From Candidatus Woesearchaeota archaeon (GTDB lineage: Archaea > Nanobdellota > Nanobdellia > Woesearchaeales > JAZDKJ01), in contig JAZDKJ010000007.1 in the NCBI GenBank assembly GCA_043803105.1, forward strand, positions 1 through 34,571: a stretch of DNA of 34,571 nucleotides, given 5' to 3'. The notes below the pieces were generated by a model. The model was given only the letters and a program-made list of their open reading frames with translations. It had not been told where the DNA came from and made no database searches. The first letter of the stretch is position 1. Each line of letters starts with the position of its first letter. Position numbers and translations under genes: made by a program. Below, piece after piece: positions 1 through 34,571 of the stretch.

Positions 1-2407
1 AAACCTTGTGCAGCTTCTTCTCTTCCTCAGCAATGATAAGTATTGTCTTTATCACTGCATCAGGGCTTAGCGAGATGCTGTCTATCCCGCACTCAACCAG
101 GAACTTGGCGAACTCTGGGAAGGTTGAGGGCGCGTCACCGCAGATGCCGATCTTCCTGTCGAAGCGCTTGCAGGTCTTTATTGCCTGGTGAACAAGACGC
201 CTCACAGCCTCATTCCTCTCGTCATAGATGCTTGCGACAAGCTCGCTGTCCCTATCAAGGCCGAGGGTGAGCTGGGTCAGGTCATTTGAGCCTATCGAAA
301 AGCCGTCAAAGATCTTGCAGAACTCATCAGCAAGGATAACATTGCTCGGTATCTCGCACATCACATAAACCTCGAGATGATTGACATGCTGCTTCAAGTT
401 GTTCTTTGCCATCTCTGCAAGAACCTGCTGTCCCTCTTTTACAGTCCTGCAGAAAGGGACCATGACCTTTAGATTCATTAAACCCATCTCTTCCCTGACC
501 TTCTTGATTGCCTTGCACTCAAGCGCGAAGGCATCCTTGTAGTCAGTATAATACCTTGAGGCACCCCTCCAGCCAATCATCGGGTTTTCCTCTTTTGGCT
601 CAAAGTCCTTGCCGCCGATGAGATTTGCGTACTCATTGGTCTTGAAGTCGCTAAACCTGAGGATTACATCGTTAGGGTAAAAAGCTGCTGCAATGGTTGC
701 AATACCCTGGGCGAGCTTGTCAACAAAGAAATCTACCTTGTTCTCGTAACCAAAGGTGAGCTCGTCAATTATCTTCTTAAGGCGCTCGTCTTTGATAGAC
801 TTGTAGTTCAAGAGCGCCTTGGGGTGTATCTTTATGTAAGAGTTTATTATAAATTCCTCCCTTGCAAGGCCAACTCCGCTGCAAGGAGTAAAGCTCAAGG
901 CAAAGGCCTCATCCGGGTTGCCAACGTTCATCATAATCCTTGTGTGGGTCGAAGGAATTTTCTTGAGGTCAGTCTTCTTAATCTCAAACTTGAGCAGCCC
1001 GTCATAGACATTACCTATTTCGCCCTCAGCACAAGAAACAGTGACCTTCTGGCCAGTGCGTACCTTGGAGGTTGCGTTAAGGCAGCCTACAAGGCATGGG
1101 ATGCCGAGCTCACGCGAGATGATAGCTGCATGACAAGTGCGGCCTCCCCTATTGGTTACTATGGCTGAGGCAATCTTCATTATCGGCTCCCAATCAGGAT
1201 CAGTCATATCAGTAACGAGAATCTCGCCTTTCTTGAACTGCTTGATATGGTGCGCATTCTCTATGACATGAGCCCTTCCAGCGCCAATGCGGTCTCCAAC
1301 ACTATGGCCTTGCACAATGGACTTGCCCTTCTGCTTCAAGACATACTGCTCCAGCTTTGTCTTGTCTTTCTGGCTCTGCACAGTCTCAGGCCGAGCCTGC
1401 ACAATGAACAGCTTGTTTGTCTTTCCATCCTTTGCCCACTCTATGTCCATTGGGGTAAAGGTAGAACGCTTCAGGGAGTAATGCTCCTCAATAATCACAG
1501 CCCACTCAGCGAGCTGCAGAACTTCCTTATCTGAAAGCACAAACTTTTTCCTGTCATTAGGAGGAACTGGAACGTTCTTTGTGTGGTGGCTTCCCTGGTT
1601 ATCGTAAATAAGCTTTGTTTCCTTTGAACCAACTTTTTTTGAAAGTATGGGTTTAAAGCCCTGCTTCAAGGTTGGCTTGAAAACATAAAACTCATCAGGA
1701 TTGACCTTGCCTTGCACAACATTCTCACCAAGACCATAAGACCCTGTGATGAAGATAGCATTCTGGAATCCTGTCTCTGTATCTATCGTAAAAATCACTC
1801 CAGAGCATGCAAGGTCTGAGCGCACCATTTTCTGCACTCCAATCGAGAGTGCAACACTGAAATGGTCAAAATGCTTGTCATGCCTATAAGAGATGGCCCT
1901 GTTGGTAAACAATGATGCAAAACACTTTTTACAGGCTTCAATCAACGCGAACTCTCCCTTAACATTAAGGTAGCTCTCCTGTTGTCCTGCAAAACTAGCG
2001 TCGGGAAGGTCTTCTGCGGTAGCTGAACTTCTGACAGCAACGTCAGTATTCTCGCCGTACTGCTTGCAGAGCACCTTGTAGGCTGAGAGGATATCATGTT
2101 TTAAGTCATCTGGGAATTGTGCACCCCTTATGAGGTCGCGCACCTTCTGGCCTCTTGATGCAAGGTTATCCATATCCTTTGTGTTAAGACCCTTCAACAC
2201 CTTGTGGATCTCTGCTTTTATGCCTGACTTTTCGAGAAGATAGCGATATGCATGAGCAGTTATTGCAAAACCGTTAGGGACAGAAACACCTTTTTTTGTA
2301 AGATTGGCATACATTTCTCCGAGCGAGGCGTTCTTTCCGCCAACCAAGCCAACGTTATTTATGCCAACATCCTTGAACCAGAGAACAAAACTATTTTCAT
2401 CATTCAT
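1..2407 (-). CDS. ppsA: phosphoenolpyruvate synthase (pyruvate,water dikinase); stop codon lies at or beyond the window edge
   Basis: Not in the ORF track because it runs off the edge. Manual translation from ATG 2407 gives MNDENSFVLWFKDVGINNVGLVGGKNASLGEM, then AVRSSATAEDLPDASFAGQQ, GGRTCHAAIISRELG (phospho-His motif) and C-terminal GIDSISLSPDAV. GAGGTG SD lies upstream. About 802 codons. Confidence 0.97.
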   Translation of the reverse strand, partial: MNDENSFVLWFKDVGINNVGLVGGKNASLGEMYANLTKKGVSVPNGFAITAHAYRYLLEKSGIKAEIHKVLKGLNTKDMDNLASRGQKVRDLIRGAQFPDDLKHDILSAYKVLCKQYGENTDVAVRSSATAEDLPDASFAGQQESYLNVKGEFALIEACKKCFASLFTNRAISYRHDKHFDHFSVALSIGVQKMVRSDLACSGVIFTIDTETGFQNAIFITGSYGLGENVVQGKVNPDEFYVFKPTLKQGFKPILSKKVGSKETKLIYDNQGSHHTKNVPVPPNDRKKFVLSDKEVLQLAEWAVIIEEHYSLKRSTFTPMDIEWAKDGKTNKLFIVQARPETVQSQKDKTKLEQYVLKQKGKSIVQGHSVGDRIGAGRAHVIENAHHIKQFKKGEILVTDMTDPDWEPIMKIASAIVTNRGGRTCHAAIISRELGIPCLVGCLNATSKVRTGQKVTVSCAEGEIGNVYDGLLKFEIKKTDLKKIPSTHTRIMMNVGNPDEAFALSFTPCSGVGLAREEFIINSYIKIHPKALLNYKSIKDERLKKIIDELTFGYENKVDFFVDKLAQGIATIAAAFYPNDVILRFSDFKTNEYANLIGGKDFEPKEENPMIGWRGASRYYTDYKDAFALECKAIKKVREEMGLMNLKVMVPFCRTVKEGQQVLAEMAKNNLKQHVNHLEVYVMCEIPSNVILADEFCKIFDGFSIGSNDLTQLTLGLDRDSELVASIYDERNEAVRRLVHQAIKTCKRFDRKIGICGDAPSTFPEFAKFLVECGIDSISLSPDAVIKTILIIAEEEKKLHKV

Positions 2408-2502
2408 CCAAAGCACCTCTTTTCCAGTCAGAGGCTCTTGGATTTAGTATTTAAAGGTTGTGCTTGCAAAAATTCTTATATGCAGACTACTTACAGACAA
2501 GC

Positions 2503-3126
2503 ATGAAAGAGCATCTCATTGACCGTTGGCAAAAGACTGGCCTTGTGAAAAACAAGGCAATCATCAAGGCGTTCAAGGAAGTGCCCAGGGAAAACTTTGT
2601 CCTTGCAGAAAGCGCTGATGAGGCTTACGGGGATTATCCGCTGCCGATAGGGCAGGGCCAGACTATTTCCCAGCCCACCACAATAATGATAATGCTTGAA
2701 GCCCTTGAATTGGAGCAGACAGACAAGGTGCTGGAGGTTGGCGCAGGCTCTGGTTATAGCGCGGCACTGATTGCAAAAATCGCAAAGAAGGTGTACAGTT
2801 TAGAGATAATCAAAGACCTTGCAATGATGGCGAGAGAGAACATCAGCAGGCTGAAGATAAATAATATTGAGATAATCAATGGCGATGGTAGCTTAGGACA
2901 TCCTGACCATGCGCCGTATGACAAAATAGTTGTGACTGCTGCAAGCCCAAAAATACCATTGCCTTGGGTAACACAGCTCAAAGAGGGAGGCATCATTGTC
3001 GCCCCTGTAGGAGACCTTTGGGGCCAGAAGATGATAAAGGGAAGGAAAATGAAGGGCGAGATGCATTATGAAGAGCTCGGATACTTCACATTTGTTCCAT
3101 TGAAGGGAAAACATGGCTACAACTAA
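2503..3126 (+). CDS. pcm: protein-L-isoaspartate O-methyltransferase
   Basis: Motifs VPRENF, AYGDYPLPIGQGQTISQP, VLEVGAGSGY, APYDKIVVTAA and FVPL. ATG 2503 is preferred over the GTG in the track. Confidence 0.95.
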   Translation: MKEHLIDRWQKTGLVKNKAIIKAFKEVPRENFVLAESADEAYGDYPLPIGQGQTISQPTTIMIMLEALELEQTDKVLEVGAGSGYSAALIAKIAKKVYSLEIIKDLAMMARENISRLKINNIEIINGDGSLGHPDHAPYDKIVVTAASPKIPLPWVTQLKEGGIIVAPVGDLWGQKMIKGRKMKGEMHYEELGYFTFVPLKGKHGYN

Positions 3127-28257: not shown

Positions 28258-28569
28258 ATGCAAAGGGCTAGAATAAAAATCGCAAGCACAGAGATAGGAA
28301 AGGTCAACGAAGTGTGTGACTACATAAAGGACATAGCCACAAAGACTGGAGTTGAAATAAGGGGTCCTATTCCTTTACCTACTAAGAAGCTTAGGGTGAC
28401 CACTAGAAAGAGCCCTTGCGGAAACGGAAAGGCGACCTGGGATAGATATGAAATAAGGGTGCACAAGAGGCTTGTTGATTTAGGGATTGACGAACGAGCA
28501 CTTCGTCTTGTTATGAGAGTGCCTATACCAGAAGGGCTTAACATCGAAATAGAAATGATTGAAGTCTAG
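28258..28569 (+). CDS. rpsJ: 30S ribosomal protein S10 (uS10)
   Basis: [27 protein letters not shown]. Confidence 0.97.
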
Positions 28570-29682: not shown

Positions 29683-30501
29683 ATGGAGCTAAACATTGAA
29701 ACCAGGACTATTGCCGTCATGCAACAGGAACTTAGGGATGAATTAGAAGGAAGCCTGGAGGAGATAAAATTTATAGTCGCGAATGCAAAGGACCTTGCAG
29801 GCCTGGAGAGTGAACTTGAGCCATTCTATCTTGACCTGCAGCCAACAGAAAAAGACAAGGCTATATTCAAAGCGTCGTTGGGCTTATCTTACAAGATCCA
29901 TGTACAGCGTCTTGAACAGGCAAGAGACAGCGGGCACTCAGCCATTATACATCCGCTGCAGGTGGGATACATCAGTCAGGAGCTTGGGCTTTCGCCGATG
30001 CATGTTGGCATAGACTTCTTGCATGATGCAGTAATAGAGAATGATTATAAGCATAGGATAGAAAACATGAAGATGGTTATCGAAGTGTTCAATAGTATTA
30101 ACAAGGGCCTTGGAAATTATATGAGGTATTACCTCATTGCTTTGAGTGCAAAGCCCAATAATGACCCAATTAAGAAGAAGGATGACCTAATGCAAAAAAT
30201 TGTTCGGATGGGCTCAAATGCAAATAGGCAGGGCCTATTCCCGGGAGAAGATACACTTGCAAATTTGCTTATACACAAACAGTGCGACAATGTGGGCAAT
30301 CTGTATGACTTAAGGTTCATGAGCGGTAAAAACGGAATTGAAAGTGTTGTCAGGCAAGCGAACAAGCTGAGGATATCTGACAAATACCTTTCGCTTGTGC
30401 GAGAGAAGGGCATTAACATGATCGGAAAGTCCGGCCTGGATTTTAACGAGTACACCCAGATATTAGTCAAAGAGCATAAAGAAAGGCTCCACTTACAGTA
30501 A
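29683..30501 (+). CDS. HD-domain protein resembling the RelA/SpoT hydrolase domain
   Basis: RDSGHSAIIHPLQV...LHDAVIEND...KQCDNVGNL parallels RxSGxPYIxHP...LHDxxED...KLADRxxN. TATTTAAA lies about 25 nt before ATG 29683. Confidence 0.7.
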   Translation: MELNIETRTIAVMQQELRDELEGSLEEIKFIVANAKDLAGLESELEPFYLDLQPTEKDKAIFKASLGLSYKIHVQRLEQARDSGHSAIIHPLQVGYISQELGLSPMHVGIDFLHDAVIENDYKHRIENMKMVIEVFNSINKGLGNYMRYYLIALSAKPNNDPIKKKDDLMQKIVRMGSNANRQGLFPGEDTLANLLIHKQCDNVGNLYDLRFMSGKNGIESVVRQANKLRISDKYLSLVREKGINMIGKSGLDFNEYTQILVKEHKERLHLQ

Positions 30502-30535
30502 ACTTATTAAACCTGACTTCTCCTCTTTGGTTTGC

Positions 30536-30757
30536 GCCGTGGTGGCACAACCTGGTACTGCGCAAGCCTGGAACCTACGTTCGAAAGCTTGTGGCCGCAA
30601 GGCTTTCCCGGACAGCTTTTTTCCATAGGAAAAAACCTGGGAAAAGACATCGCTTGTTTAAGCGAGTTTGTCTTTTTTCATGGTATTCGAGAGAATGGCT
30701 GGGGGAATTCAAAGGTCTTGGGGCAACGCCCCGGACAAGAAAGTCCGGGCCACGGCG
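30536..30757 (+). tRNA. tRNA-Ser(GGA) with three introns (37/38 at 30574-30585; 53/54 at 30612-30707; 59/60 at 30714-30743)
   Basis: The spliced 84-nt sequence GCCGTGGTGGCACAACCTGGTACTGCGCAAGCCTGGAA|AGCTTGTGGCCGCAAGGCTTTCCCGG|TTCAAA|TCCGGGCCACGGCG forms a cloverleaf with a long variable arm and G73. A TTATTAAA promoter lies about 25 nt upstream. Confidence 0.9.
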
Positions 30758-30769
30758 TTTTACTTTCAA

Positions 30770-31045
30770 TTCAGCGCCCAGACAGGGAGTTTGGCGTTAA
30801 ATTGGGAGACCATCGTTCCCCCTCGGCGTTACACTCTGGATATAACGCCCAAGGCAGTCAGGACCTGAACTCGCAGTTCAAGTCCGCATTTGGGCTTTGT
30901 ATCATGACAAAAACGCTTCAGTTTGAACGATGGCGTTGTATTATGGTTTAAAAGCAGGGCCGCGGCGTCTTATCCCTGTTTCAGCGCCTGCCAAGGTTGG
31001 GATTTGCATTAAGGGATGAAATCCCGACTCAGGCTCTGAAGCCTC
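30770..31045. ncRNA. putative structured non-coding element between tRNA-Ser and the integrase
   Basis: Pairings AGACAGGGA/TCCCTGTTT, CCATCGTTC/GAACGATGG, internal hairpins and a long hairpin at 30980-31040. No family recognised. Confidence 0.35.
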
Positions 31046-31118
31046 ATTCTTAAGCCCGTTTTGGTGCCCTTTTTGGTACCAAACCTATATTAAAGTCTGC
31101 TCCTTAGGAGGATGTAAG

Positions 31119-32375
31119 ATGAAACAGGCCATAGATATCCACAACTACGAAATAAGGCTAAAAAGCGCCATTGAGCAGGTCAAATCTGCTGATATCTCTG
31201 CAAGGAATAAGAAGCTGATAATGCAGCTATACAGCGATCTGGTAATAGGGAACATAAGCAAGCCAAGGCTCATCAAATACTTGAACTACCTGAAGATTAT
31301 TGCCCAGCGTGTCAATATAGACTTCGACAAGATGACTATTGATGATGTTAAGGAATTTATTCGCAGCATTCAGGAGAGAGCAGACTATTCCCCTTGGACA
31401 AAGCAAGCGTATAAAGTGATACTTAGGAAGCTCTTCAAATGGATGAAAGGGGATAATAAAGAATATCCGCCAGAAGTTAAGTGGATTAATATCAACATCA
31501 AGAGAACAGAGACCAAGCTTCCAGGAGAGAATGATCTTCTTACAGAGCAGGAGATTAAGAAGATGATTGATGTTGCAACTCATCCTAGAGACAAGGCTCT
31601 GGTTTCTATCATCTTTGAATCTGGCGGAAGAATTGGCGAGATTGCTTCCTTGCAGATTCAAAACGTCAAGTTTGACAAATTCGGAGCAATGCTTACTGTT
31701 GAAGGCAAGACGGGCTCAAGGCCTATCAGGATAATAAGCTCAACTGCTTACCTGATGACATGGATGGAAAATCATCCCTTGAAGCATGACAAGACTGCTC
31801 CTTTATGGGTTAATAATGTTGGGCAAAATAAGCACCAGCTGATGCATTATGGCACAATAAGAATGCTTTTCCTTAAAATTGGGAAACGGGCAGGTGTCAA
31901 TAAAAGATTAAACCCGCACATTTTCCGTCATTCAAGGGCTACTTTGATGGCTAACCACCTTACTGAATTCCAGATGAACCAGTATTTTGGCTGGATTCAG
32001 GGCAGCGACATGCCATCAACTTATGTGCACATGTCTGGAAAGAATATTGATAATGCAATCCTTCAGATGAATGGCTTGGCTACTGAGGAATCTAAAGCAC
32101 AACAGTCTGAATTAAAACCAATGATCTGTCCTAGATGCGAGACAATCAATGCTCCTAGCAGCAAGTTCTGCACTAGATGTGCCTGTATTCTTGATATGAA
32201 GACAGCAATGGAAATGCAGCAGGTCAGGGAGAAGGAGCTTGAAGTGCAGACTGTTCAGGATGATTTAATGACTACATTAATGCAAGACCCAAAGATTAAG
32301 GACATGATAGTCAGCAAGATTCTTGAGCTTGGTCTGGGTGGAAAGTTGAAAGCTATTGTTGGACAGAATGTCTGA
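31119..32375 (+). CDS. int: tyrosine integrase with a C-terminal zinc ribbon
   Basis: ESGGRIGE (R), GKTG (K), HIFRH, FGW and STYVH (Y); CPRC...CTRC. Architecture resembles tRNA-targeting SNJ2-like integrases. Confidence 0.95.
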   Translation: MKQAIDIHNYEIRLKSAIEQVKSADISARNKKLIMQLYSDLVIGNISKPRLIKYLNYLKIIAQRVNIDFDKMTIDDVKEFIRSIQERADYSPWTKQAYKVILRKLFKWMKGDNKEYPPEVKWININIKRTETKLPGENDLLTEQEIKKMIDVATHPRDKALVSIIFESGGRIGEIASLQIQNVKFDKFGAMLTVEGKTGSRPIRIISSTAYLMTWMENHPLKHDKTAPLWVNNVGQNKHQLMHYGTIRMLFLKIGKRAGVNKRLNPHIFRHSRATLMANHLTEFQMNQYFGWIQGSDMPSTYVHMSGKNIDNAILQMNGLATEESKAQQSELKPMICPRCETINAPSSKFCTRCACILDMKTAMEMQQVREKELEVQTVQDDLMTTLMQDPKIKDMIVSKILELGLGGKLKAIVGQNV

Positions 32376-32446
32376 AAATAAGATTTACTCTTCAGCAATA
32401 CACATCAAATAATTTATTAAGTAGCCATCTCCTTTTATGAGATAAT

Positions 32447-33034
32447 ATGCAATTCAAAGAAACAAAAGTTGGAAAGCTTATCCCAAAAGCTGTAAATTGG
32501 ATACATGATCGATGGGTCTTACTCCTTCTTTCAATGGTAATGGTACTGGCCTATTCCATCATTCATGAGTATATCCATTATTTTGCCAACTTAGCGCTTG
32601 GGCACACAGGCTATATCACCTATGGATTGATGGCTTACTTTTTTCATTTTAATGACTTGGGTACAATGCCAGTGGTTCATTATTTTCTAATTGGTTCTGC
32701 TCCTTATTTCTTTGATATGACCCTATTATTAATTGTATTTTGTATTTATAATATACGACCAAGATACAAAACAATATTGGCAAAAATTGCCTTTTTCCCT
32801 GCCTTAGATATAGTATGGAATTGTTTCATGATACTGCCAAGTTTTATTACTCAGAGCAGTGATGATTTTCTTAATATGCTTAGAATAGCTGCACTTCATA
32901 ATCGAGAAACAGTAGCTATCATGATTGGGTTTATTACTCTAGTATTGTTGCTCGGTATTTTTCTCTTCACCCCGTTCTGGCCTGCGATAAAAGATTTGCT
33001 TTGGGTAAGCAAAAAAGAATTAGTTAAATCATGA
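32447..33034 (+). CDS. membrane protein with HExxH (putative zinc metalloprotease)
   Basis: IIHEYIHY following a TM helix; SAPYFF; SDDF; AT-rich. Confidence 0.7.
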   Translation: MQFKETKVGKLIPKAVNWIHDRWVLLLLSMVMVLAYSIIHEYIHYFANLALGHTGYITYGLMAYFFHFNDLGTMPVVHYFLIGSAPYFFDMTLLLIVFCIYNIRPRYKTILAKIAFFPALDIVWNCFMILPSFITQSSDDFLNMLRIAALHNRETVAIMIGFITLVLLLGIFLFTPFWPAIKDLLWVSKKELVKS

Positions 33035-33107
33035 GCCTAATTTCTTCAGTTCTGCAATTACTATCCTTATCCACTCTGGTACTTTGATTTTCAATTCATC
33101 TTCTTGA

Positions 33108-33323
33108 TTATTTTCCATTGTGCTCCACCCCTAGTTTATCCATTATTTTCTTGATATAAATTTCCAGAAGAGCTATTCTCTCTTCATAAATTTGAGGCTT
33201 CTTGAGAATCATGTCCCTGCAATAAGTTGCAGTCTTTGAGTAGCCGCAAGCCTCTGAATTCTGAATTATTTTCTGCTTTTCCTCAAGGCTAACGGAAAAC
33301 CTGACCTTGTGATTCTTAGGCAT
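33108..33323 (-). CDS. ribbon-helix-helix protein (MobC/CopG-like)
   Basis: MPKNHKVRFSVSLEEKQKIIQNSEACGYSKTATYCRDMIL. Confidence 0.7.
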   Translation of the reverse strand: MPKNHKVRFSVSLEEKQKIIQNSEACGYSKTATYCRDMILKKPQIYEERIALLEIYIKKIMDKLGVEHNGK

Positions 33324-33456
33324 GTATAATGAAAAGGAATGGTGTATAAAATATTCTCGGACGTATTTTTTGTACAAGAATTTGTACAAATGTTCCTTCC
33401 GACGGGATATATAGGTCGAACCCTTATTGATTTTATCAGCGATGGAGGTTGATAAA

Positions 33457-33651
33457 ATGGAATGCGTAATCTGCAAAAAAGAGCTCAATCAGGATGAGCT
33501 TGAAAACATAAACGAGATTTGCTTTGACTGTCAAAGGATTCTGGAATGGATTTACCAAGAGCAGGATTACGAGGATAAGCCAGAGAGGCTTGAGGCTGTT
33601 GTTGATTACCTGAAAAACCAGAGAGGTGATGATAATGGCAGAGACAAATAA
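33457..33651 (+). CDS. small CxxC zinc-finger protein
   Basis: MECVIC...ICFDC; GGAGGT SD. Confidence 0.7.
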   Translation: MECVICKKELNQDELENINEICFDCQRILEWIYQEQDYEDKPERLEAVVDYLKNQRGDDNGRDK

Positions 33652-34387
33652 AATTCAATGCTGTGATGCCCTTGAATATCTCAAGGCCATTCCTGACGAA
33701 AGCGTTGCATTGACCATAATTGATCCACCTTATAATATCAGTAAGGAGCGTTATAAATACATTAGGGGGAGAAAGGTGACCTCTGACTTTGGTAATTGGG
33801 ATCACTTCAGCAGCCATCAAGAATACAAGGATTTCATGTCCTCAATAATCAGCGAGATTTCTAGAGTCAGCAAGAAAGACGCGTCTGTTGTGATTTGGTG
33901 CCCTGAGCAATATTATGGCCTAATAAGAATGCTGGTCAAGCAAGCGGGCTTCTCAAGGACATGGATGCATTACTGGGTTAAGAGCAATAGCGTTCCAGTT
34001 CCAAATAGGGATAAATGGAGAGGAGCAGTTGAGTGCTGCTGGTTCGGTTCCAGAGGGCAGGCTCCATTCAATTTTATCTCTCAGAGAAGCATGGTCAATT
34101 TTACAATCAGGAGAACTGTTGACGCACCTGAGAGAATCAGAGTTGACGGGAGAACAGCCCACCCCACCCAAAAGCCCCTAGACGTTACTATGAAGTTTGT
34201 GAAAATAGCCAGCAACAAGGGGGATGTCGTATTGGATTGCTTCATTGGTGTCGGCACAACTGCAGTCGCTGCCAAAATCCTTGGCAGGGATTTCTTGGGT
34301 TGCGATAATAATGAGTTCTTTGTCAAATTAGCAGAGCAAAGGCTCAAGGATTGTGACTTTCAAAATTCAGATGAGGTGAGAGCATGA
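33635..34387 (+). CDS. N6-adenine/N4-cytosine DNA methyltransferase, beta class
   Basis: DPPY precedes HPTQKP and VLDCFIGVGTT; GAGGTGA SD. Confidence 0.93.
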   Translation: MAETNKIQCCDALEYLKAIPDESVALTIIDPPYNISKERYKYIRGRKVTSDFGNWDHFSSHQEYKDFMSSIISEISRVSKKDASVVIWCPEQYYGLIRMLVKQAGFSRTWMHYWVKSNSVPVPNRDKWRGAVECCWFGSRGQAPFNFISQRSMVNFTIRRTVDAPERIRVDGRTAHPTQKPLDVTMKFVKIASNKGDVVLDCFIGVGTTAVAAKILGRDFLGCDNNEFFVKLAEQRLKDCDFQNSDEVRA

Positions 34388-34571
34388 AAAAAGCATTTGT
34401 CTGTATCATCATGTTTGTGATGCTAGTACAATTTGTTTTAGCCATCAACTACGGTAAGGTATCTCAGGATGATAAGGAGGCATTTGATGAGATATTGACT
34501 CCTGTACTTAGAATCTACAATCTTGTAAAATATGTAGCCTCAGCGATAGCAGTAATCTTCCTGATGTTCTC
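34384..34571 (+). CDS. partial exported/membrane protein, possible TrbC/VirB2-like pilin
   Basis: MKKAFVCIIMFVMLVQFVLA|INYGKVSQDDKEAFDEILTPVLRIYNLVKYVASAIAVIFLMF: signal peptide, amphipathic helix, then a TM helix. Truncated by the window. Confidence 0.5.
   Translation, partial: MKKAFVCIIMFVMLVQFVLAINYGKVSQDDKEAFDEILTPVLRIYNLVKYVASAIAVIFLMF

Follow-up and report, generated by a model that had tools for sequence, protein, structure and literature searches.

We report here a serine tRNA gene, tRNA-Ser(GGA), that is interrupted by three introns, two of which flank six nucleotides of the T-loop and leave them as an isolated micro-exon. The gene lies at positions 30536-30757 on the forward strand of a 34,571-nt stretch of DNA (hereafter the window), which is the whole of the 34.6-kb contig JAZDKJ010000007.1 of a Candidatus Woesearchaeota archaeon (assembly GCA_043803105.1; genome G000, 1.56 Mb, 43% G+C, 96% complete). 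The locus is very probably a real spliced gene, and its anatomy is well supported. The layout composed of an intron at 53/54, the micro-exon TTCAAA and an intron at 59/60 is found in seven tRNA-Ser genes from five genomes and five families of the order Woesearchaeales. Taken as a whole, the evidence makes it reasonably probable that the gene is functional and spliced in cis, that it is matured by the endonuclease EndA and the ligase RtcB, and that the 53/54 intron leaves first, the 59/60 intron second and the anticodon-loop intron (37/38) last.

The gene is divided into four exons. Exon 1 (30536..30573, positions 1-37) carries the 5′ strand of the acceptor stem, the D-arm, the 5′ strand of the anticodon stem and the anticodon GGA. 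Intron 1 (30574..30585; 12 nt, at 37/38) separates it from exon 2 (30586..30611, positions 38-53), which comprises the 3′ strand of the anticodon stem, the long variable arm and the 5′ strand of the T-stem, CCCGG. Intron 2 (30612..30707; 96 nt, at 53/54) is followed by the micro-exon TTCAAA (30708..30713, T-loop positions 54-59), intron 3 (30714..30743; 30 nt, at 59/60) and exon 4 (30744..30757, positions 60-73), which contributes T60, the 3′ strand of the T-stem (CCGGG), the 3′ strand of the acceptor stem and the discriminator G; CCA is not encoded. All of these elements are on the + strand, and the intron coordinates and lengths as well as the micro-exon are exactly those given in an earlier note on this DNA, which was made from the sequence alone. 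Joined together, the exons form an 84-nt molecule that ARAGORN calls tRNA-Ser(GGA). Its acceptor stem has 7 bp and its T-stem 5 bp; the T-loop is standard, the variable arm is long and the discriminator is G. In the unspliced DNA of the window, no tRNA was detected by ARAGORN, and none by Rfam at either gathering or permissive thresholds; a permissive Rfam match in 30400-30900 was discarded as a spurious long non-coding RNA (E = 0.44).

Beyond the ARAGORN call, the exon parse rests on uninterrupted homologues and on a blind scan of the genome. The joined exons can be aligned over their full length with uninterrupted tRNA-Ser genes of other genomes in the order, and among 19 tRNA-Ser loci of other genomes, 5 are free of introns and 14 have an uninterrupted T-arm. 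Exon 1 is identical at 38/38 positions to that of G025, a member of another genus, and 97% identical to that of G016. The blind scan, with a pattern consisting of a T-stem strand, an intron, TTCRAN, an intron, a T-stem strand and an acceptor strand, returned 26 candidates for the two-intron T-arm layout, only two of which yielded a tRNA, namely Ser(GGA) and its Ser(UGA) paralogue. Bulge-helix-bulge (BHB) geometry was used for the exon parses of the Ser(GGA) genes of G012 and G119. When ARAGORN was applied in intron mode to the T-arm-spliced sequence, it proposed Ser(gct) with a 4-nt intron; this alternative was rejected, as CCTGGAA and AGCTTG are retained in the orthologues, where they surround introns that are unrelated. 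A BLAST search with exon 1 identified three tRNA-Ser genes in the genome: the present one, Ser(UGA) (C8:105988-106204; introns at 53/54 and 59/60) and Ser(GCU) (C10; introns in the anticodon loop and at 59/60). The same search found no second GGA copy in this 96%-complete genome. ARAGORN with intron mode recovers just nine tRNA genes in all of it, which suggests that most of its tRNA genes are probably interrupted at non-canonical sites and thus invisible to the program.

The splice motifs were scored with a rule that comprises a 4-bp central helix, 3-nt bulges and a cut placed behind the second base of each bulge. At 53/54, the central helix is complete (TCCC/GGGG, 4/4; 30606-30609/30702-30705), the bulges read GG|A and AA|T, the inner helix measures 5 bp (30613-30617/30697-30701) and an outer helix is absent, which corresponds to the relaxed HBh′ form. 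At 59/60, the central helix TTCA/AGAA forms three of its four pairs and contains an A.A mismatch, the inner helix is shifted by one base, and the intron encloses a GGGGC/GCCCC hairpin. The motif at 37/38 resembles a weak bulge-helix-loop, in which the central helix CTGG/TTCG consists of one Watson-Crick pair, two G.U pairs and one mismatch, the anticodon stem serves as the outer helix and the inner helix is limited to 1 bp. The bulges and the 4-bp helix that define a BHB are thus present at 53/54, weakly so at 37/38, and with a 3/4 helix at 59/60, and none of the introns of this precursor displays the strict hBHBh′ form (h and h′ of at least 2 bp). With the boundaries fixed, 77 of 400000 random positions in the genome (0.019%) show the 53/54 geometry, whereas about 15.7% show a central helix of at least 3/4; in this gene taken by itself, significance is therefore confined to the 53/54 motif. 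The boundary of intron 1 can slide across 34/35-37/38 with the product unchanged, and only the 37/38 register sets the anticodon stem beside a 3-nt bulge. The other registers of intron 1 (34/35, 35/36 and 36/37) and the 58/59 register of intron 3 gave poorer central helices, and the 33/34 register, with the anticodon CGA, was rejected at 0/4 helix pairs. At 37/38, the orthologues carry unrelated introns of 13-14 nt.

The two structures of the T-arm compete for the same nucleotides. The central helix of the 53/54 motif uses 30606-30609, and the T-stem uses 30607-30611. In addition, T54 (30708) is doubly used: in the 53/54 motif it is the last of the three bases of the 3′ bulge, and in the 59/60 central helix it is the first base. 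The earlier note had recognized both the imperfection of the 37/38 and 59/60 motifs and the consumption of the CCC of the T-stem by the TCCC/GGGG helix; our analysis confirms these points and adds T54 as a second overlap. Since the T-arm motifs have T54 and the CCC of the T-stem in common, a given endonuclease complex can engage just one motif at any moment. Moreover, ligation must fall between the two T-arm cuts, as the 6-nt exon would otherwise be released.

The layout was then sought across the order with a 17-nt degenerate pattern of the junction between the 53/54 intron and TTCAAA, allowing at most one mismatch; the search covered 401 genomes. The pattern matched 16 times in 14 genomes, compared with a single match for the reversed pattern used as a control. 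Seven of the matches are tRNA-Ser genes, and the remaining nine, which belong to the 13 new matches and lie in apparently coding sequence, were dropped as chance. The seven genes are the GGA and UGA genes of G000 and of G119, the GGA genes of G012 and G365, and the UGA gene of G349, and ARAGORN calls every spliced product tRNA-Ser. In all seven, the 53/54 motif consists of a 4/4 central helix, the bulge AA|T and an inner helix that spans 4 bp or more, and the outer helix is absent. Compensatory changes in the inner helix (CAGC/GCTG, CGGC/GCCG and CAGCC/GGTTG) are observed among these genes. The central helix at 59/60 is complete in six of them (TGAA in four, TGAG in two) and reduced to 3/4 only in the Ser(GGA) gene of the window. 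As anticipated by the earlier note, the 59/60 motif draws on the T-stem: in each of the seven genes it has no outer helix in the precursor and acquires a perfect 5-bp T-stem in this role once the 53/54 intron is removed. The splice sites set by the bulge rule coincide with the boundaries needed by the cloverleaf for both T-arm introns of all seven genes. The micro-exon is 6/6 identical throughout, an identity that the search pattern itself demanded at one mismatch or fewer, whereas the introns on either side of it have diverged.

Comparison of the Ser(GGA) genes of G000 and G012 gave identities of 11/12 in the T-arm exon, 6/6 in the micro-exon and 14/14 in the 3′ exon, and of 62/96 and 17/30 in the two T-arm introns. 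A genome of the same genus, G001, contains the 59/60 intron with the identical A.A mismatch and lacks the 53/54 intron, while G039 has the 53/54 intron alone, which suggests that these introns are gained and lost quickly. Two of the orthologous tRNA-Ser(GGA) genes carry four introns each. In G012 (L004 1501-1726), the sites 29/30, 37/38, 53/54 and 59/60 hold introns of 19, 13, 84 and 26 nt, respectively; in G119 (L024 1322-1562), the introns at 15/16, 37/38, 53/54 and 59/60 measure 28, 43, 53 and 31 nt, respectively. The available portions of the literature describe up to three introns per archaeal tRNA gene, and literature searches on BHB for genes with four introns, or for a tRNA micro-exon, yielded no example from an archaeal tRNA.

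The order of splicing was addressed by RNA folding. In G012, plain folding assigns probabilities of 0.94 and 0.99 to the 53/54 helices and 0.02 to the T-stem in the precursor. The T-stem reaches 0.77-0.90 after removal of the 53/54 intron, and the 53/54 helix is at 0.18-0.45 if the 59/60 intron goes first. These values support the 53/54-first order in G012. For the two G000 genes, plain folding was uninformative: the mature T-stem was assigned only 0.28 in Ser(GGA) and 0.04 in Ser(UGA). The energy model was therefore regarded as unreliable here, and the free-energy cost of forcing each complete motif was calculated by constrained folding instead. In the precursor, the cost amounts to 0.1-4.0 kcal/mol for the 53/54 motif versus 3.3-8.6 kcal/mol for the 59/60 motif, and it is lower for 53/54 in each of the seven genes (2.7 vs 8.6 kcal/mol in Ser(GGA) of G000). 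Removal of the 53/54 intron lowers the cost of the 59/60 motif in all seven, from 8.6 to 4.9 kcal/mol in the present gene, and in the reverse order the cost of the 53/54 motif increases slightly in six of the seven. The cost of the anticodon (37/38) motif is 8.9 kcal/mol in every state. In these models, the motif costs favour the order 53/54, then 59/60, then 37/38, and we lean slightly towards it as the preferred route.

In the maturation scheme that we favour, a single 222-nt precursor would be transcribed from a single-copy, functional tRNA-Ser(GGA) gene. A TATA-like box, TTATTAAA, at 30504..30511 (+), 25-32 nt upstream of the mature 5′ end, is a putative promoter, and the Ser(UGA) paralogue and the G012 orthologue are preceded by similar A/T boxes with the same spacing; a T-run at 30758..30761 (+), right after the discriminator, is a putative terminator. 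The precursor would then enter the archaeal protein-only pathway, in which EndA would cut the BHB motifs and RtcB would ligate the exons. The 96-nt intron, with its strong, co-varying HBh′ motif, would be removed first. The 59/60 motif, marginal in the precursor with a 3-bp central helix and no outer helix, would become hBHBh′-like once the T-stem forms, and the 12-nt anticodon intron, as a weak bulge-helix-loop, would be the last to leave. The enzyme would be a single α-type EndA, presumably a homotetramer, as judged from the gene inventory.

The EndA architecture was identified in the genome as one α-type gene. It encodes a 203-aa protein with matches to PF01974 (9.6e-28) and PF02778 (2.6e-15). 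A search of all six-frame open reading frames (ORFs) with the family profile (hmmsearch --max) found neither a paralogue nor a β subunit, the next E being 0.085, in a genome that is 96% complete and may hold a further copy in a gap. The catalytic residues Tyr139, His149 and Lys180 are invariant in 120/120 homologues among the matches listed. The closest relatives with names belong to the Woesearchaeota or Nanoarchaeota (DPANN), and the closest solved structures are the α subunit of Nanoarchaeum equitans (3iey_A) and the α4 enzyme of Methanocaldococcus jannaschii (1a79), with E = 8.1e-40 and 1.5e-35, respectively. Over residues 43-203, the protein aligns with 1a79 almost without gaps.

According to the accessible parts of the literature, only (αβ)2 and ε2 enzymes cut relaxed motifs, by means of inserted loops, and α4 enzymes cut only the strict BHB; "L3-harbouring" α4 enzymes are also described in DPANN, where L3 denotes the loop 90-98 of N. 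equitans, located between the catalytic Tyr and His. The two other loops that define broad specificity, L1 (CSL) and L2 (ASL, the ARMAN-2 specificity loop), are inserted in the N-terminal domain and hold a conserved Lys. The L3 insert is absent from the present EndA, which at this site has 6 residues fewer than the N. equitans α subunit and the Tyr-His spacing of M. jannaschii. The short spacing is shared by 120/120 listed homologues, including that of Woesearchaeote RBG_13_36_6 (P0023), and Fig. 7 of Kaneta 2018 may score L3 differently. The loop of the N-terminal domain has no long insert; it is 1 residue longer than that of 1a79 and is without the 2-residue ARMAN-2 insert that holds K161. 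In the loop aligned with the ASL, the homologues among the matches listed carry Lys in 109 and Arg in 10 of 120 cases. A C-terminal Trp is present in 120/120 of the same homologues; Hirata 2012, in the portion available, describes this residue as conserved only in the α2β2 EndAs of Crenarchaea and Nanoarchaea, with W384 as the ARMAN-2 equivalent. The N-terminal tail is rich in Lys and Glu and varies in length within the family (6-71 residues).

The earlier note had called for an endonuclease of relaxed specificity, and this requirement is upheld, chiefly because the 53/54 motif is of the HBh′ form in all seven genes. The EndA of G000 would contradict the simple rule that α4 architecture means strict specificity. 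We tentatively suggest that an EndA of α4 architecture, without any of the three published specificity inserts, processes HBh′ motifs in strict alternation with RtcB, such that the order in the T-arm would be obligatory, although we regard this combined proposal as rather doubtful. If it is true, the broad specificity would have an undescribed basis, for which the candidates are the conserved Lys66-type residue, the Trp at the C-terminus, the N-terminal tail with its many Lys residues and some accessory factor. The EndA gene (L001 1474-2085, -) is arranged head to head with an ORF (2199-3089, +) whose translation contains an HxHxDH-type metallo-β-lactamase motif and which is possibly RNase Z.

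RtcB is also encoded in G000 (PF01139, 1.5e-165). The gene, on C6, contains a 30-nt in-frame insert with a TAG stop (L039 about 2721-2750, -) within the conserved PDAHEG.GFPIGG motif. The insert folds as a textbook BHB, in which the 4-bp helix is AAGG/CCTT, the bulges are ATT and AGA, and the inner helix extends over 8 bp; if it is excised according to the BHB rule, the motif is regained, and a Tyr codon spans the junction. In three relatives (G001:C198, G012:C5 and G016:C10), the RtcB match is divided into positions 1-50 and about 49-426, separated by ~1.4 kb within one open frame of 818-1006 aa; this arrangement looks like an intein at the site of the split.

Several observations weigh against the reading outlined above. 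ARAGORN is lenient, and it accepted a wrongly spliced 83-nt product of G119 as tRNA-Ser(gga); its call on a spliced product alone is therefore weak evidence. Plain folding of Ser(GGA) in G000 gives 0.00 for the 59/60 central helix and the T-stem in every intermediate, in addition to the low value for the mature T-stem. In the Ser(UGA) paralogue, the ensemble predicted by folding contains the two T-arm central helices side by side, at 0.46 and 0.65. G365 is an exception to the trend of the costs, as its 53/54 motif becomes cheaper, from 4.0 to 1.5 kcal/mol, if the 59/60 intron goes first. Even after removal of the 53/54 intron, the motifs at 59/60 and in the anticodon loop of the present gene remain expensive (4.9 and 8.9 kcal/mol). 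The 53/54 motif is itself already without an outer helix, so that removal of the 59/60 intron first is conceivable. Finally, because the insert in rtcB carries an in-frame stop, the ligase itself depends on splicing.

Some of these points bear on whether the order is fixed. The earlier note had held that the two T-arm structures are mutually exclusive and that the 53/54 intron must therefore be removed first. The competition is borne out, and so, in the constrained models of 7/7 genes, is a preference for 53/54 first; the necessity is not, as the 59/60 motif is likewise HBh′ in the precursor. Since the enzyme must cut a motif without an outer helix at 53/54, and since the two helices coexist in Ser(UGA), an obligatory order does not follow, and we consider a strictly obligatory one improbable. 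The same evidence lends some weight to an alternative in which there is no fixed order: either T-arm intron would be removed first, and cleavage and ligation would alternate because the overlapping motifs are not occupied together. The absence of the outer helix at 53/54 in all seven genes implies that the enzyme needs none, the 59/60 motif has a complete central helix in six of the seven precursors, and in Cyanidioschyzon merolae, as far as the available text goes, there are three introns, two of which can leave in either order. On the other hand, the 59/60 motif is dearer than the 53/54 motif in every precursor and cheaper after removal of the 53/54 intron in every gene, and in Ser(GGA) of G000 the 59/60 helix has just three pairs, including that of T54, a base which the bulge at 53/54 also takes up. 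On these grounds, the absence of a fixed order is a possibility of the minority kind, and the preferred order remains 53/54, 59/60 and 37/38. For the folding of the spliced intermediates proposed in the earlier note, the outcome is accordingly mixed: the constrained costs point to 53/54 first in all seven genes, but plain folding says little about the G000 genes.

The costs of the weaker motifs also raise the question of decay, in which the gene would be non-functional and the 37/38 and 59/60 motifs would be remnants of lost splicing. The central helices at these two sites are no better than those at 16% of random positions, their motifs cost 4.9-8.9 kcal/mol, and a mobile-element integrase lies next door. 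However, the genome, which is 96% complete, yielded no other Ser(GGA) gene, the cloverleaf of the joined exons is perfect, the 38/38 identity of exon 1 extends to other genera, and the same-genus orthologue of G001 shares the A.A mismatch in the 59/60 helix, so that this state is tolerated. We therefore regard decay as very improbable. The integrase gene, of the tyrosine type (31119..32375, +; PF00589, E 9.3e-18), begins 361 nt downstream of the tRNA gene, and the G+C content is lower past it (0.38 in 32001-34000). An element has possibly integrated at the tRNA gene; a search for att-like repeats of the 3′ end of the tRNA came up empty both in 30400-34571 (the contig end) and in the rest of the genome.

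The 96-nt intron at 53/54 has relatives within the genome. BLAST detected about 9 further copies of its first ~33 nt in G000, one of them 100% identical over 33 nt, and the 5′ module is present in other genomes too. The module (30613..30646, +) consists of CAGC, a T-run, a hairpin, an A-run and CCTGGGAAAAG. It starts at 53/54 in two Ser genes of G000 and at 58/59-59/60 in the T-loops of at least four other tRNA genes; copies are located inside other T-loops and also just outside tRNA genes, as exemplified by G000:C6:187267-187299 (-), C10 about 28525-28565, C6:303990-304040 (-) and C12:123938-123975 (-). The hairpin pairs of the module co-vary (CC/GG, GCA/TGC and GCG/CGC), and some copies have an extra ~55-nt insert within the A-run. 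The 96-nt intron is a copy of a dispersed family of hairpin introns. That the locus is instead an adjacent split gene, trans-joined as in N. equitans, with the intron acting as a terminator (T6 after the 5′ BHB strand) and a promoter, is unlikely and the least probable of the alternatives: a T6 run does lie right after CAGC and TTTAAG about 48 nt before the micro-exon, but the T-run is one arm of a co-varying hairpin, the homologous introns of G012 and G119 have only T3-T4, the intron of G365 is 35 nt in all and too short for a promoter and leader, and the TATA-like box is not conserved in the Ser(UGA), G012 or G119 copies.

The seven genes in five genomes constitute a compact, conserved natural substrate for examining what lets EndA accept relaxed motifs, and they bear equally on how multi-intron precursors mature without losing pieces. 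With their overlapping T-arm motifs and 6-nt exon, they allow a direct in vitro test, using a single small enzyme, of the sequence in which cutting and ligation take place. As the nine ARAGORN calls in G000 illustrate, DPANN tRNA genes are missed wholesale by standard finders.

The closest known counterpart is the pre-tRNA-Pro(GGG) of ARMAN-2 (Candidatus Micrarchaeum acidiphilum; Fujishima et al. 2011, PMC3239211), for which the available text describes introns at 53/54 and 59/60 in the T-loop region. ARMAN-2 likewise belongs to DPANN, and its adjacent introns leave a six-base exon at the identical position (54-59). In contrast, its tRNA is specific for Pro rather than Ser, both of its motifs are described as strict hBHBh′, compared with HBh′ at 53/54 in our seven genes, and its EndA is a three-unit ε2 enzyme with the ASL loop, compared with one α-type gene in G000. 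The text parts of PMC3239211 contain no analysis of splicing order, conservation or intron family. Dependence of one motif on the processing of others has been described as well: in the accessible text of Soma 2013 (PMC3728597) and Soma 2014 (PMC3978253), the BHB of the last intron in some archaea forms only once the others have been processed, and these papers cite Sugahara 2007/2008 and Tocchini-Valentini 2009 for the multi-intron ("nested") pre-tRNAs of Thermoproteales. Compared through these later papers, the Thermoproteales precursors resemble ours in having up to three BHB introns per gene at non-canonical sites and an order set by structure, but they are crenarchaeal and are processed by an (αβ)2 EndA with the CSL loop. 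Thermoproteales also provide a parallel for the intron family, since near-identical introns occur there in different tRNAs and at different positions (Fujishima 2010, as related in the portion of Yoshihisa 2014, PMC4090602, available to us), just as the G000 family occupies 53/54 in Ser and 58/59-59/60 in other tRNAs; the G000 family differs in belonging to another phylum, in its hairpin module with a T-run and an A-run, and in its copies beside tRNA genes.

A more distant case is tRNA-Ile(UAU) of C. merolae, which has three introns, one of them at 53/54. Reverse transcription PCR showed that their order of removal follows the BHB free energy, with the anticodon intron last (PMC3728597 and PMC9602550, in the parts accessible). 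Unlike the present gene, it is a eukaryotic nuclear gene whose introns fold independently, with no second T-arm intron and no micro-exon. On the enzyme side, the G000 EndA shares the two-domain α unit with the proteins of M. jannaschii (1a79) and N. equitans (3iey_A). However, only strict BHB cleavage is reported for α4 enzymes, whereas the G000 protein must handle HBh′ motifs, and the N. equitans α subunit has a 6-residue loop that is absent from the G000 protein while sharing its C-terminal Trp. A structure-dictated order and the combination of introns at 53/54 and 59/60 are thus already known, the latter from ARMAN-2. Three features add to this picture: the conservation of this layout in tRNA-Ser across Woesearchaeales, the membership of the 53/54 intron in a mobile family, and an α-only EndA that appears to lack the known inserts.

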